From positions 160,001 to 224,000 of the forward strand of contig CAVVYR010000004.1 in the NCBI GenBank assembly GCA_963752475.1: 64,000 nt of DNA, written 5' to 3'. The notes beneath the pieces were generated by a model. It was not told the DNA's origin, made no database searches, and was given only the letters and a program-made list of their open reading frames with translations. Positions within the stretch are counted from its first letter, which is position 1. Each line of letters begins with the position of its first letter. Shown piece by piece: positions 14,691-22,389 of the stretch. The translations under genes and the position numbers were made by a program. The stretch comes from an uncultured Chloroflexia bacterium (GTDB taxonomy: Bacteria; Chloroflexota; Limnocylindria; Limnocylindrales; CSP1-4).

Positions 14691-17339
14691 CTAGGCCTTG
14701 GCCAGCAAGCGCTTGAGCTTGGGTACCGCGGCGAGGGCCGTCGGCGAGTCACGCATGGGCAGGTCGGTGCGGCGCTTTCCATCGAAGGCGTAGAGCGCGC
14801 CGGCCACGGCCGCCGCCGTGGGCACCAGCACCGCTTCGCCCATGCCCTTGGCGCCATAGGGGCCCTCCGGCTGGAACTCCTCCACCAGGATCGTCTCCAC
14901 CGGCGGCATGCCCGACGCGGGGATGATGTTGAGCGACTTCAGCTTGTCGGTGGTGGGGAAGCCGCCCTCGGTCTCGAACGTCTCGCTCAGCGTGTGACCC
15001 AGGCCCATGTGTACGCCGCCCACGACCTGGCCCTCGAGCATCAACGGGTCGAGCGCCTTGCCCACGTCGTGCGCGGCGATGAACTTCTCGATCGCGCCAT
15101 CGTCATCGAGGATGCAGACCTGCGTGGCCCAGCCGTAGCCGAAGTGCGTGATGGGCTCCTCGACGCTCTCGTCGCCCAGCTTGGTCGTCCAGTCCACGAC
15201 GACCTCGGCCCCGAAGGACTCGCCGGCAAGGTCGTCCAGGCGGCACCGTCGCGTGACCATCTCCTTGCGCAGCTTCTCGCAGGCCTGCAGCACTGCCCGA
15301 CCACCCAGCATCGTGGCGCGCGAGGCCGTGGTGATGCCGGTGTCGAGCTCGTAGCTCGTGTCGACGCGGACCTCGATCGACTCGGGCGGCAGGTCCAGCT
15401 CGTCGGACGCGATCTGGCGCATGACCGTGTGGGTCCCCTGCCCCATCTCCGTCCACGAGTGGTAGACCGTCAGTCGGCCGTCGCCCTCAGGCCGCACGAC
15501 CGCTCGCCCGAACTCCTTCATGCCGTTGCCGATGCCCGTGTTCTTGGCACCACAGGCGATGCCGGCGTACTTGGCGTTCCTGTACTGGTCCTTGACCGCC
15601 AACAGCGTGTCCTTCAGGCCCACGCCCGGGCCCAGCTTCTGGCCGGTGCCGAAGCGCTTCCCCTCTTCGAGTGCGTTGCGCCAACGGATCTCCCAGCCGT
15701 CGATGCCCACCGCCTCCGCCAGTCGGTCGAGCAGCGTCTCCATGCCGAAGTTGGCCTGGTTGGCACCGAAGCCGCGCATCGCGCCACAGGGCGGGTTGTT
15801 GGTCAGGATGGCGTTGGCCACCACGTCGACGTTGGGCACCTCGTACGCGCTGCAGGCGTGACCCGCGGCACGCTCGAGCACCTTGGCCCCGACGCTGGCA
15901 TAGCCGCCGTTGTCGCCGATGAAGCGCGCCTTGACGGCGGTCAGCTTCCCCTCGGCGTCACAGCCGACGGTGTACTCCATCCAGAAGCGATGGCGCTTGA
16001 TGGAGAAGCGCAGCGAATTGGCGCGGCTGAGCGCCAGCAGCACCGGGCGATCGGCCGCCAGTGCCAGCAGCGCGGCGTGGCCCTGGACGTTGAGGTCCTC
16101 CTTGCCGCCGAAGGCGCCGCCGGTGGCGACCTGCGTGACCAGCACGTCACCCTGCTCCCAGCCGAGGAGCGAGGCGATCTGGCGTCGGTCCTCCCACGCG
16201 CCCTGGCCCTGCGAGAGGACGTGCATACGCGGTCCCTCGCCGTTCTGGGGTACGGCCAGCGAGGACTCGGGCTCCAGGTAGGCATGCTCGATACCGGCGG
16301 TCTTGAAGGTGTCGGTGACGACGTGCGCGGAGCTCGCCAGCGCGGCCTCCGTGTCTCCGCGGGCATAGGCCGATTCGGAGAGCACGTTGCCCTCGGGTGC
16401 GATCTGCGGGGCACCGTCGGCCATGGCCTCGAAGGGGTCGGTCAAGGGCTCGAGCACCTCGTACTCGATCTCGACCAGCTCGGCCGCGGCACGGGCCTGA
16501 GCGCGTGTCTCCGCCGCTACCGCCGCGAGCACGTCACCGACATAGCGTGTGGTCTCGCCCTCGGCGACGAGCTGCCGCCAGTCATCGGTGATGAGACCCT
16601 GGTTGCGCTTGCCGGGGACATCGGCCGCGGTGATGACCGCGACCACGCCCGGAGCGGCCTCGGCCGCAGAGGTGTCGATCGACTTGACCACCGCTCGCGG
16701 ATGGTCGCTGAAGCGCAGGGCGCCGTGGAGCATGCCCGGGACGATGTGGTCGGCCACGTACTCCTGCATGCCCAGCACCTGCTCGCGCGAGCGGTACTTG
16801 GGTGCCGGATCGCCGACCGCGGCGCCCGGATGCGGCGCCGGCCGAGGACCGCCATTGCGTGCCACAGCCACCTGGCCGATGGCGTCGACGATCGAGAGGT
16901 AGCCCGTGCAGCGGCAGAGGTTGCCGGCGAGGGCCTTGGTGATGGTGTCGCGCTCGGGCTCGGCATCCTTGCGCAGCAGCGCCTCCGCCTTCATCACGAT
17001 GCCCGGGGTGCAGTAGCCGCACTGCGAGGCACCGGTGGCGCTGAAGGCATCGGCCCACAGGTCGCGCGAGTCCTCGGGCAGGCCCTCGAGCGTCTCGATC
17101 TCCTTGCCCTCGAAGCGCTCCGCCGGCTGGGCACACGAGACGACGGGACGGCCGTCGACGATGACGGTGCAGGCGCCACAGGAACCCTCGGGCGCACATC
17201 CATCCTTCATCGAACGCAGCCCGAGCTGGTTGCGCAGTAGGTAGAGCAGCGAGGTGCCCGCCTCGAAGTCGACCGAGCGGTCCTGTCCGTTGAGGGTGAT
17301 GTCCACGAGTCCTGCCATCCGTGCGTGAAGCGGTGCCAT
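14691..17339 (-). CDS. Xanthine-dehydrogenase-family Mo hydroxylase with fused 2Fe-2S and Mo-binding domains (resembles selenium-dependent Mo hydroxylases); start may be 17318
   Basis: KDGCAPEGSCGACT, QCGYCTPG, NLCRCTGY, GGAFGGK, AMRGFG, GAKGMGE. Confidence 0.85.
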   Translation of the reverse strand: MAPLHARMAGLVDITLNGQDRSVDFEAGTSLLYLLRNQLGLRSMKDGCAPEGSCGACTVIVDGRPVVSCAQPAERFEGKEIETLEGLPEDSRDLWADAFSATGASQCGYCTPGIVMKAEALLRKDAEPERDTITKALAGNLCRCTGYLSIVDAIGQVAVARNGGPRPAPHPGAAVGDPAPKYRSREQVLGMQEYVADHIVPGMLHGALRFSDHPRAVVKSIDTSAAEAAPGVVAVITAADVPGKRNQGLITDDWRQLVAEGETTRYVGDVLAAVAAETRAQARAAAELVEIEYEVLEPLTDPFEAMADGAPQIAPEGNVLSESAYARGDTEAALASSAHVVTDTFKTAGIEHAYLEPESSLAVPQNGEGPRMHVLSQGQGAWEDRRQIASLLGWEQGDVLVTQVATGGAFGGKEDLNVQGHAALLALAADRPVLLALSRANSLRFSIKRHRFWMEYTVGCDAEGKLTAVKARFIGDNGGYASVGAKVLERAAGHACSAYEVPNVDVVANAILTNNPPCGAMRGFGANQANFGMETLLDRLAEAVGIDGWEIRWRNALEEGKRFGTGQKLGPGVGLKDTLLAVKDQYRNAKYAGIACGAKNTGIGNGMKEFGRAVVRPEGDGRLTVYHSWTEMGQGTHTVMRQIASDELDLPPESIEVRVDTSYELDTGITTASRATMLGGRAVLQACEKLRKEMVTRRCRLDDLAGESFGAEVVVDWTTKLGDESVEEPITHFGYGWATQVCILDDDGAIEKFIAAHDVGKALDPLMLEGQVVGGVHMGLGHTLSETFETEGGFPTTDKLKSLNIIPASGMPPVETILVEEFQPEGPYGAKGMGEAVLVPTAAAVAGALYAFDGKRRTDLPMRDSPTALAAVPKLKRLLAKA

Positions 17340-17499
17340 GTGGCACTTCCGACACCCTACCCTTATCAGACACCGTTAGGCTAGGTGAACCTGCCGGCAG
17401 CGCTGCCGCCCAGATCCAGGCACGTGCCGCAGGCCCGTCGCACGTCGAGGCGAGACCCCTGTTCGGCGACGGTTACGACGAACAAAGTGGAGGCGACGT

Positions 17500-18987
17500 A
17501 TGCGACGGCTTGGACTCGAACGCGAAGTGGTGGACCAGGCTGTCTACGAGTCCTCGGTACGACGCTTCCGCGAGGCCGGCATCGTGATGCCCACGTTCGC
17601 CCAGCTGGCCGACCCCTGCTCGATGCCCACGGACCTGCTCAGCGACGTGGCCCCGGCCGATCCCGACGCGCCCGACCCGCGGAACCTCTTCCGCGCGCAC
17701 TGGCACAACGAGTTCGACGAGTCGATGCCGGTCCCCATGCCCGCCCACGTGGTGCTGCCGCCGGAGCTCACCGGCGTGCCTTCGCCGATCGTGGTGCTGC
17801 TCGGCGATCGCTTCCCCATGATCCACTCGCACAAGCTCATCGCGGCCTACGGCTGCCTGGCGCCACGCATCGTCACCGGCCAGTTCGACCCTGCCACCCA
17901 GCGCGCCGTCTGGCCCAGCACCGGCAACTACTGCCGCGGTGGCGTGGCCGTCAGCCGGATCATGCAGGCGCACGGCGTGGCGGTGCTGCCGGAGGGCATG
18001 AGCCAGGAGCGCTTCGACTGGCTGGCCTCGTGGGTCACAGCGCCGGACGACATCATCCGCACCCCCGGCACCGAGTCGAACGTGAAGGAGATCTACGACA
18101 AGTGCGCGGAGCTGGATCGAGACCCGCAGACGGTGATCTTCAACCAGTTCAGCGAGTTCGGGAACCACATCGGCCACTTCTACCTCACCGGCGCGGCCAT
18201 CAGCCGCGTCTTCGATAGCCTGGCAGAGGATGACGAGGAGCTGCGCCTGTCGGTCTTCACGTCCGCCACCGGCTCCGCCGGCGCCATCGCCGCGGGCGAC
18301 TACCTGAAGGAGGAGTACGGCACCCGCATCGCTGCGGTCGAGGCCCTCGAGTGCCCCACGCTGCTGTACAACGGCTTCGGCGAGCACAACATCCAGGGCA
18401 TCGGCGACAAGCACGTGCCGCTCATCCACAACGCCATGAACATGGACTTCGTCGTCGACATCAGCGACAAGGCCACCGACAACCTCATGGTGCTGTTCAA
18501 CACCGAGGTCGGCCACGAGCACCTGCGGGAGCGCATGGGCGTGCCCCAGTCGGTCCTCGACCAGCTCTGCTCCTTCGGCTACTCGTCCATCTGCAACGTG
18601 CTCGCGGCCATCAAGGTGGCCAAGCAGCAGGGGCTGGGTCCGAAGGATGTGATCGCCACCGTGGCCACCGACGGTGCGGGCATGTACGCCTCGGAGATCG
18701 ACGGCATCGTCGCGCGTGACCATCGCGGCACCTTCGACGCGGCCGCCGCGGGTGAGGTCCGGGCGCGGTTCCTCGACGGCGTGGACACGGCCCACATGCT
18801 CGAGGCCACGCAGGCCGACCGGCTGCGCATGTTCAACCTGGGCTACTACACCTGGGTCGAGCAGCAGGGCGTCACGTTCGAAGAGTTCACCGCACGCGAG
18901 AGCCAGGACTTCTGGGTCGAGACACGATCGATCGTGACCGAGTGGGACGAGATGATCGAAGCCTTCAATGCAGAGGTCGCTGGGTGA
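17500..18987 (+). CDS. PLP-dependent fold-type-II (PALP) enzyme
   Basis: HSHK Schiff-base Lys, PSTGNY, NQFSEFGN, TGSAG, HNIQGIG. Confidence 0.8.
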   Translation: MRRLGLEREVVDQAVYESSVRRFREAGIVMPTFAQLADPCSMPTDLLSDVAPADPDAPDPRNLFRAHWHNEFDESMPVPMPAHVVLPPELTGVPSPIVVLLGDRFPMIHSHKLIAAYGCLAPRIVTGQFDPATQRAVWPSTGNYCRGGVAVSRIMQAHGVAVLPEGMSQERFDWLASWVTAPDDIIRTPGTESNVKEIYDKCAELDRDPQTVIFNQFSEFGNHIGHFYLTGAAISRVFDSLAEDDEELRLSVFTSATGSAGAIAAGDYLKEEYGTRIAAVEALECPTLLYNGFGEHNIQGIGDKHVPLIHNAMNMDFVVDISDKATDNLMVLFNTEVGHEHLRERMGVPQSVLDQLCSFGYSSICNVLAAIKVAKQQGLGPKDVIATVATDGAGMYASEIDGIVARDHRGTFDAAAAGEVRARFLDGVDTAHMLEATQADRLRMFNLGYYTWVEQQGVTFEEFTARESQDFWVETRSIVTEWDEMIEAFNAEVAG

Positions 18988-22328: not shown

Positions 22329-22353
22329 TCCCCGCGCTCACCACGCGATACTT

Positions 22354-22389
22354 GAAGGCGCGGCACTCGGGAGAGGGTGCCGCGCCTTC
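22354..22389 (+). terminator. Stem-loop closing the carbamoyltransferase operon
   Basis: GAAGGCGCGGCAC...GTGCCGCGCCTTC. Confidence 0.65.

Follow-up and report, generated by a model that had tools for sequence, protein, structure and literature searches.

A set of five genes in a 64,000-nucleotide stretch of DNA from an uncultured Chloroflexia bacterium (Limnocylindrales, CSP1-4; assembly GCA_963752475.1, contig CAVVYR010000004.1, positions 160,001 to 224,000; hereafter 'the window') probably encodes, to judge from sequence comparisons, the opening enzyme and the later steps of the reductive urate, or 2,8-dioxopurine, pathway, in a variant form that belongs to Chloroflexota of the Limnocylindria type. 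The genes specify a fused 2Fe-2S/molybdenum hydroxylase of the xanthine dehydrogenase (XDH) family, two fold-type II pyridoxal phosphate (PLP) enzymes (PLP1 and PLP2) and two carbamoyltransferases (CT1 and CT2). The gene set found in related loci is that of the reductive urate pathway with its back end rebuilt, in which the second carbamoyltransferase and the PLP pair most likely stand in for three known enzymes. That oxygen-free route of uric acid breakdown, of which the five genes would represent a soil-bacterial form, was solved in 2025, in gut bacteria only according to the available text of Li et al. 2025 (PMC12507026) and of the preprint by Liu et al. 2025 (bioRxiv 10.1101/2025.04.24.650524). 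An earlier note on this DNA had proposed a 'candidate new' system for the breakdown of ureides or nucleobases. Its placement in nucleobase and ureide catabolism is supported by comparative genomics, with relatives that add carbamate kinase, SsnA, a YgfK/UacX-like reductase and 8-oxoguanine deaminase; its claim of novelty is not, as the pathway is that published in 2025, and a pseudo-aspartate carbamoyltransferase beside a ygeW homologue, xdh and hyuA had been drawn in 2013 (PMC4016543). The two-transferase/two-PLP form is thus best read as a variation on the published pathway and not as a system of its own. No paper describing this form was found, although supplements and figures may show such clusters.

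All five genes are real, with long open reading frames and a coding-type third-position GC content (GC3) of 0.86-0.93 in a GC3-based gene call. The hydroxylase gene (14691-17339, minus strand; 882 amino acids) faces a tight four-gene operon on the plus strand, PLP1-PLP2-CT1-CT2, an arrangement that had been described before and that open reading frames, GC3 and family scans confirm. PLP1 (17500-18987; 495 amino acids) resembles CysK and the beta-substituted alanine synthases, while PLP2 (18984-20360; about 458 amino acids) is of the ThrC/serine racemase/threonine deaminase type. The start of PLP2 overlaps the PLP1 stop as GTGA; this overlap and the alignment of orthologues indicate GTG at 18984, not 18942, as its likely start. 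CT1 (20383-21339) and CT2 (21351-22328), each composed of OTCace_N and OTCace domains, follow on the same strand after gaps of 22 and 11 nucleotides. The operon is closed, as had been claimed, by a GC-rich hairpin (22354-22389, plus strand) that begins 26 nucleotides after the CT2 stop: a perfect 13-bp inverted repeat by eye, it forms 15 pairs when folded, with an energy of -38.1 kcal/mol (z = -5.86) that none of 200 shuffled sequences equalled. It has no T/U tract and is therefore missed by a scan for consensus intrinsic terminators; indeed, neither that scan nor one for sigma-70 consensus sites returned anything useful in this 69% GC DNA. The 160 bp that separate the hydroxylase and PLP1 starts (17340-17499) include a GGAGG before PLP1 and show 61% mean column identity in an alignment to five loci of the same genus, with conserved blocks, for example, around 'ACACCGTTAGGCTAG' and 'TGCCGC'; this divergent intergenic region may be an operator or promoter. 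An Rfam scan of positions 13500-23500 gave zero matches at E <= 1, and thus no purine, xanthine or 8-oxoguanine riboswitch.

Related loci were collected through PLP1. A relative is encoded by 594 of the 596 pattern hits obtained from the genome collection, and the best 80 of the 594 loci were used; every count 'of 80' below refers to loci fetched through PLP1, with presence judged by tblastn thresholds because the GC3-based gene caller is rough. XDH is found in 30 of these loci, an SsnA-like gene in 26, CT1 in 25, CT2 in 21 and carbamate kinase, clustered after CT2, in 13 (373 bits against a cut-off of 266 for the copy in L018, whose SsnA-like gene reaches 425.8 of 444 bits). A reductase (YgfK-like, PreA/UacX-like or of the F420 LLM type) is present in 20 of the 80, the intact YgfK-like copies being 1125-1130 amino acids long, and an 8-oxoguanine deaminase (640 bits, cut-off 532) in four. 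Loci of four phyla have XDH next to the PLP pair, the genes being arranged in several ways, and all 25 loci with a transferase carry it. Seven of the 80 loci encode an M20 carbamoylase and/or an Amidohydro_3 protein, and none of the 25 transferase loci does, so that transferases and ureido-hydrolases are mutually exclusive in this set (two of the four loci with CT1 alone are cut contigs). The genes are therefore conserved together elsewhere, and the idea, raised when the window was first read, that a second transferase may replace a YgeY-type hydrolase, so that 2,3-diureidopropionate would give up both of its ureido groups as carbamoyl phosphate, fits this comparative context: the two kinds of enzyme overlap in 0 of 25 loci, no YgeY was found in the genome, and CT1 lacks the residues that bind aspartate.

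Other Limnocylindria have the complete arrangement in one of two gene orders, either a reductase (in some cases), SsnA and XDH divergent from PLP1-PLP2-CT1-CT2-carbamate kinase, or GntR-CT1-CT2-carbamate kinase-XDH-(8-oxoguanine deaminase)-PLP1-PLP2 facing YgfK-SsnA, while alphaproteobacterial loci (for example, that of Rhodovulum sp. PH10) combine Amidohydro_3, carbamoylase, RpiR, XDH, SsnA, PLP1 and PLP2. Six loci of the same genus (L011-L015 and L075) have the short form seen in the window, in which an ABC exporter and XDH stand divergent from PLP1-PLP2-CT1-CT2; in a seventh (L016), which lacks the exporter, SsnA and a YgfK-like gene occupy that place, and carbamate kinase was not found in any of the seven. 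In the window, the genes downstream of the hydroxylase (11080-13769, minus strand) encode a fused ABC exporter (ABC_membrane and ABC_tran, 564 amino acids) and an EamA transporter; the exporter lies beside XDH in six same-genus loci at 78-89% identity, and EamA in four of those. Beyond the genus these two genes are not conserved at this place, and they are putative transporters for the pathway.

The two carbamoyltransferases, TRANSFERASES, are not housekeeping enzymes, because the genome has its own pyrB and its own arcABC and because the specificity motifs of both CT1 and CT2 are altered. A genuine pyrB (283.8 bits, cut-off 236.95) lies in a pyrimidine operon on the minus strand of the window (28408-33302; pyrB, a pyrC-like gene, pyrD and pyrF), 6 kb from the five-gene locus, and provides an internal control for the true aspartate carbamoyltransferase (ATCase) of the same genome, while an arcA-arcB-arcC operon on contig C29 encodes an ornithine carbamoyltransferase (OTCase; 393 bits, cut-off 281) and a carbamate kinase (453 bits, cut-off 361). 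It is scarcely credible, then, that CT1 is a normal ATCase and CT2 an anabolic OTCase, placed by chance beside two PLP enzymes, as their best-scoring models might suggest (CT1 lies just above the ATCase cut-off and the best models for CT2 are OTCases), since CT1 is without K84 and the R229/RxQxER motif, CT2 is without DxxxSMG and HCLP, and the genome holds pyrB and an OTCase separately.

CT1, which had been described as ATCase-like and retains that label, barely passes the ATCase model TIGR00670 (241.6 bits against 236.95), and its closest solved structure is the ATCase of Pyrococcus abyssi. When aligned to the Escherichia coli ATCase and to the window's pyrB, it retains STRTR, R105, HPTQ and R167. 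It has lost K84, replaced by tyrosine ('GDFY.ES'), and R229, replaced by proline ('YMEPVVQ'), and carries HSLP in place of HPLP, in all 24 of 24 orthologues; K84 and R229 are both intact in the window's pyrB. The aspartate-binding features of ATCases (RxQxER with R229 and Q231, together with K84) are therefore absent from CT1; RxQxER, K84 and, for ornithine, DxxxSMG are among the motifs named by Shi et al. 2015 (PMC4581275) as determinants of second-substrate specificity. A search of the full library with CT1 returned 10462 proteins at E <= 0.001, of which the best 150 (representatives at 50% identity) were inspected and 87 were full length. Forty of these 87 are canonical ATCases, 38 share the CT1-type 'R-A/S-G' 80's loop without RxQxxR and form a diverse group of non-canonical ATCase-like proteins, and nine are of other kinds; the exact CT1 signature (EPVVQ with HSLP) appears in only two of the 87.

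Its motifs place CT1 among the 'pseudo-ATCases' described by Barba et al. 2013 (PMC4016543): it retains STRT and HPTQ, has the H[ST]LP form at H265-P268 and lacks RxQ, and the genome has a genuine pyrB besides. That study describes a subgroup 2 pseudo-ATCase in Nocardioides sp. JS614 beside a ygeW homologue, xdhABC and hyuA, and reports a subgroup 1 protein, Rxyl_2847 of Rubrobacter, as a ureidoglycine carbamoyltransferase; the subgroup 2 proteins are given no function in its available text.

CT2 falls below every NCBIfam cut-off for its relatives (OTCase, 257.8 of 306 and 255.1 of 280.85 bits; N-acetylornithine carbamoyltransferase, or AOTCase, 256 of 288; YgeW, 180 of 453). Its DxxxSMG motif is replaced by the AOTCase-like YAKSWG and its HCLP by HPLP, in 22 of 22 orthologues, and it thus departs from OTCases in both motifs as well as in its curated score. 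Nor does it agree with AOTCases, which it misses by score (256 of 288) and by its shorter loops, or with YgeW, a knotted carbamoyltransferase paired with the kinase YqeA, as the YgeW model gives it only 180 of 453 bits and the sole carbamate kinase found is that of arcABC on C29. The label 'YgeW-like' given to it in the earlier note is accordingly imprecise, and AOTCase/OTCase-like (256-258 bits) describes it better.

The PLP pair is very widespread. At least 8000 scored candidates matched PLP1 (8000 of 8000), and the pair occurs in hundreds of genomes of several phyla; PLP1 is 57-92% identical across phyla, and PLP2 directly follows it in 72 of the 80 loci, seven of the eight exceptions being contigs cut near PLP1. 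PLP1 has a CysK-like core with an extension of about 100 amino acids at each end, scores 33.8 bits on PALP (cut-off 35) and 62.8 of 351 on the cysK model, and has a predicted structure (pLDDT 91.3) whose best matches, the cysteine synthases and beta-cyanoalanine synthases, cover some 320-340 of its 495 residues with a TM of about 0.8 relative to the target. These fold matches, obtained with a model, fall in the clade of beta-elimination and beta-replacement enzymes. Across 55 sequences, residues H111-K112, S140-N143 and G258-G261 do not vary. PLP2 scores 112 bits on PALP and at most 59.9 of 303 on threonine synthase models, and its predicted structure (pLDDT 93.8) matches ThrC, serine racemase and TdcB; K139, C25 and H36 are invariant and C8 and C11 nearly so in 51 sequences, and its N-terminus bears a Cys/His motif resembling a zinc ribbon. 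The catalytic lysines and cofactor loops are thus invariant in both proteins, and the agreement with cysteine synthase and threonine synthase extends to fold and PLP-binding residues and not to curated scores. Look-ups of both in the ESM Atlas returned unannotated PALP clusters only, and a prediction of a PLP1-PLP2 complex (score 0.00 against a mark of 0.32) speaks neither for nor against a heteromer.

The pair most likely stands in for YgeX. How two proteins might share this work is a matter of speculation: they could be a racemase and a lyase, in view of the D configuration that has been proposed for the intermediates, or could carry out a beta-replacement to serine followed by a dehydration. 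The notion that one of the two replaces HyuA was rejected, as both keep their PLP lysines and hydantoinase homologues adjoin the pair in three loci. Two actinobacterial loci carry, immediately before the pair, a gene for adenine deaminase (L043, 6108-7880) or for formate-tetrahydrofolate ligase (L042, 6039-7886); these are further links of the PLP pair to purine catabolism.

The hydroxylase comprises Fer2, Fer2_2, Ald_Xan_dh_C, MoCoBD_1 and MoCoBD_2 domains (Pfam) and lacks a neighboring FAD subunit; its TIGR03311 score of 915 bits exceeds the cut-off of 830. SsnA is also present in 24 of the 30 loci in which XDH is linked to PLP1, and it is this linkage that suggests its proposed role, the interconversion of urate and 2,8-dioxopurine.

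The route that we infer from homology and gene context, in all of its steps, would begin with the reduction of urate to 2,8-dioxopurine by the hydroxylase, after which the YgfK-like reductase and the SsnA-like aminohydrolase (both encoded on contig C6) would dearomatize and open the purine and a hydantoinase (also on C6) would yield 2,3-diureidopropionate. CT2, whose AOTCase-like site would suit the omega-amine of an N-alpha-acyl amino acid, would act as a functional stand-in for YgeW and phosphorolyze the 3-ureido group, an assignment that agrees with that of Liu et al. for YgeW. CT1, in which an ATCase scaffold for an alpha-amine appears to have lost its beta-carboxylate site, would phosphorolyze the remaining 2-(N-alpha)-ureido group in place of the hydrolase YgeY. 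Carbamate kinase could then turn both carbamoyl phosphates into ATP, up to two in all, and PLP1 and PLP2, in place of YgeX, would convert 2,3-diaminopropionate to pyruvate and ammonia. The chemistry of the pathway and the role of carbamate kinase are those described by Li et al. and Liu et al. A more specific version is put forward tentatively, as one more likely wrong than right: that soil and freshwater bacteria possess a selenium-independent reductive urate pathway in which both ureido groups become carbamoyl phosphate, for two ATP per urate, a pseudo-ATCase runs in reverse on N-alpha-carbamoyl-2,3-diaminopropionate, and the PLP pair forms a new route from 2,3-diaminopropionate (possibly its D isomer).

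The remaining parts of the pathway were sought in the source genome, a metagenome-assembled genome of 4.25 Mb (88.8% complete, 5.8% contamination, approximately 69% GC), and in its genus. In the window itself, as had been observed before, carbamate kinase, YgeY and a stand-alone hydantoinase were not found, the only relative being the pyrC-like dihydroorotase within the pyr operon. Elsewhere in the genome, an F420 LLM oxidoreductase (TIGR03842, 417 bits, cut-off 295) lies with an SsnA-like and a YgfK-like gene at about 729-735 kb of C6, and a HyuA-type D-hydantoinase (TIGR02033, 552.6 bits, cut-off 393) at C6:174717-176102. The contig that carries the five genes also holds, some 55 kb upstream, a guanine deaminase-like gene (331 bits, below the cut-off of 375.4) and a pucD-like XDH (493.7 bits, below 783.65). 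Searches of the genome for YgeX (best 49.7 of 532 bits) and YgeY (best 34 of 321.5) found neither. Thus, of the genes that the earlier note had named for a genome search, arcC, hyuA and an SsnA-like gene (below its cut-off) are present and unlinked, while ygeY, selD and yqeB were not found. Among 41 genomes of the genus (metagenome-assembled, 57-95% complete, and as relatives not independent), PLP1 is found in 21 and an unlinked SsnA-like gene in 17, the two together in 16, PLP1 only in five, SsnA only in one and neither in 19.

Several of these observations weigh against the assignment to the reductive urate pathway. The genome's own cluster is split over three contigs, and its SsnA-like gene reaches only 246 bits against a cut-off of 444. 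The YgfK-like gene (C6:731198-734564, corresponding to L091:11198-14564; 554 of 835 bits) spans at least three reading frames where relatives are intact, with frame changes near L091 positions 11865, 14230 and 14523 that reflect either assembly error or decay. The hydantoinase gene is unlinked and sits among unrelated genes; such a gene is present in 40 of the 41 genus genomes irrespective of the operon, and is thus uninformative, and is linked in only three of the 80 loci. The only carbamate kinase found in the genome is the arcC of the arginine deiminase operon. The hydroxylase scores 243 of 1102 bits on TIGR03313, the model of the E. coli XdhD type, and is not an XdhD orthologue, and the known pathway makes do with a single PLP lyase where a pair is found here. 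Finally, selenium genes are sparse: in the source genome SelD scores at best 24.7 of 125 bits and YqeB gave no match (YqeC was not searched), and YqeB exceeds its cut-off in none of the 41 genus genomes. SelD exceeds its own cut-off in five of the 41, only one of them (G011) with PLP1. According to the preprint of Liu et al., SelD and YqeBC accompany the urate cluster in every gut strain that has one, and SelD is required in Clostridium sporogenes.

The alternative that survives best, unlikely as it is, holds that the same enzymes act on another diureide or N-heterocycle (allantoate, by way of a CT1 resembling ureidoglycine carbamoyltransferase, or hydantoin, or a pyrimidine derivative) and that the hydroxylase works oxidatively. 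Allantoate and diureidopropionate are close analogues, the activity of the hydroxylase is a prediction, and CT1 is of the pseudo-ATCase type, one subgroup of which was reported as ureidoglycine carbamoyltransferase in Rubrobacter (PMC4016543); among the full-length relatives of CT1, the 38 of 87 mentioned above are diverse. Against this stands the HSLP of CT1, as opposed to the HPLA reported for the ureidoglycine carbamoyltransferase subgroup (PMC4016543), together with the company that the operon keeps, in that SsnA, a YgfK/UacX-like reductase and 8-oxoguanine deaminase travel with it, and the consideration that a C2 product would require no PLP enzymes. The hydantoinase search gave no match of allantoinase grade, and uricase and HIU hydrolase had no match in the 88.8%-complete genome, which also led to the rejection of an oxidative uricase route as such.

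Less likely again is the suggestion that the hydroxylase and the operon are merely neighbors, and that the PLP pair has a broader function in amino acid metabolism that the transferases serve. The pair is indeed very widespread, with its 594 loci and at least 8000 matching candidates, its neighbors vary (adenine deaminase, formate-tetrahydrofolate ligase, a transketolase-like gene), and 45 of the 80 PLP-pair loci have no marker of the urate pathway in their flanks, so that a wider role for the pair may exist; this last count also weighs against the assignment to the urate pathway. Yet four of five genomes in which the PLP pair stands alone encode, at another site, an SsnA-like gene whose scores (206-241 bits) follow the same pattern, PLP1 and SsnA co-occur across the genus, and the position of XDH beside the pair in four phyla and several gene orders, and its presence in 25 of 25 transferase loci, are difficult to ascribe to mere proximity.

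It is very improbable that the operon is instead biosynthetic, providing a ureido or diamino amino acid (of the albizziin type or derived from 2,3-diaminopropionate) for a natural product. The zwittermicin and viomycin clusters do contain carbamoyltransferases that act on 2,3-diaminopropionate (PMC4581275), and precursors of diaminopropionate are made by enzymes resembling CysK; the SbnA model gives weak matches here, of 20-22 bits. The motifs (T/S)RWQTTG and HDLP, described for those transferases in the same paper, are absent from both CT1 and CT2; genes for nonribosomal peptide synthetases, polyketide synthases and tailoring enzymes were not found nearby; and relatives hold a carbamate kinase of catabolic type and purine-catabolic genes in the operon.

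Other features of the window lie apart from the five-gene locus. An rve-type integrase or transposase gene (2356-3429, minus strand; 357 amino acids) has helix-turn-helix domains, and two adjacent plus-strand genes (25741-26892 and 27697-28263) encode DUF4139 proteins with weak Top6b_C-like matches. A low-complexity tract of approximately 2.6 kb (50700-53300) is composed of G and T only, with a GC content of 0.44-0.50, many degenerate T/G tandem arrays, a GC skew that reaches +0.49 and an AT skew that reaches -0.53; an artefact of assembly or of long reads seems a better explanation than a biological one.

If the assignment to the reductive urate pathway is correct, the pathway would extend to abundant uncultured Chloroflexota and Actinomycetota of soil and freshwater, a means of doubling its substrate-level ATP yield would be suggested, and a function would be provided for 'pseudo-ATCases' that are annotated as PyrB. 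It would likewise draw attention to a large family pair of PLP enzymes that is not known to have a role, and hint that the first, molybdenum-dependent step works without the selenium cofactor machinery of the gut enzymes. The window also bears on a point left open in print, namely which of the two ureido groups, 2- or 3-, the carbamoyltransferase cleaves (PMC12990295): a division of labor between an alpha-specific and an omega-specific transferase, if true, would settle which group is attacked by the YgeW-type enzyme.

The closest known system is the reductive urate ('2,8-dioxopurine' or 'yanthine') cluster of E. coli and Clostridium, which comprises xdhD-ygfM or xdhAC, ygfK or uacX, ssnA, hyuA, ygeW with yqeA or uacY, ygeY and ygeX (Li et al., PMC12507026; Liu et al.). 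The genome or its related loci share with that cluster an SsnA-like aminohydrolase, a YgfK- or PreA/UacX-like reductase, a carbamoyltransferase with carbamate kinase and a terminal fold-type II PLP chemistry, and the Clostridium cluster, like the window, has an XDH-family molybdenum enzyme without a flavin subunit. Where the known cluster has YgeY and YgeX, the variant has an additional transferase of the ATCase-like kind together with two unrelated PLP enzymes; where the known cluster has YgeW, CT2 is not an orthologue (180 of 453 bits); and hyuA, which the known cluster includes, is linked in only three of the 80 related loci. What sets the window apart is that its cluster is split, that the YgfK-like gene is broken and that carbamate kinase is available only from the arginine deiminase operon. 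For the SsnA neighborhoods of Chloroflexota, the available text of Li et al. describes an F420-type reductase only, and the Pfam-based coloring used there (PF00185, PF00291) would presumably count the two-transferase/two-PLP genes as YgeW and YgeX.

Individual enzymes show a similar mixture of likeness and departure. CT1 shares with the pseudo-ATCases of Barba et al. the P. abyssi-type ATCase as nearest relative, the retention of STRT and HPTQ, the loss of RxQ and the H[ST]LP form, and with their subgroup 2 a tandem arrangement with a transferase of the AOTCase/YgeW clade near an xdh gene, whereas its P-V-V at the RxQ position fits none of the three patterns given in that work (AIA/AIS/SIA, GX[SC], VXP). 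CT2 matches the AOTCase of Xanthomonas (PDB 3kzc, 3l02; E = 9e-55) in the sequence 'VYAKSWGA', with its second-substrate-binding lysine, and over much of the C-terminal domain, whereas the AOTCase has HCLP and longer 80's and 120's loops and CT2 has HPLP and, relative to 3l02, shorter ones. PLP1 and PLP2, finally, share with the YgeX/DpaL, CysK and ThrC/serine racemase families a type II fold and a conserved catalytic lysine and phosphate loop but, unlike them, reach no curated family cut-off and form a strictly adjacent pair.

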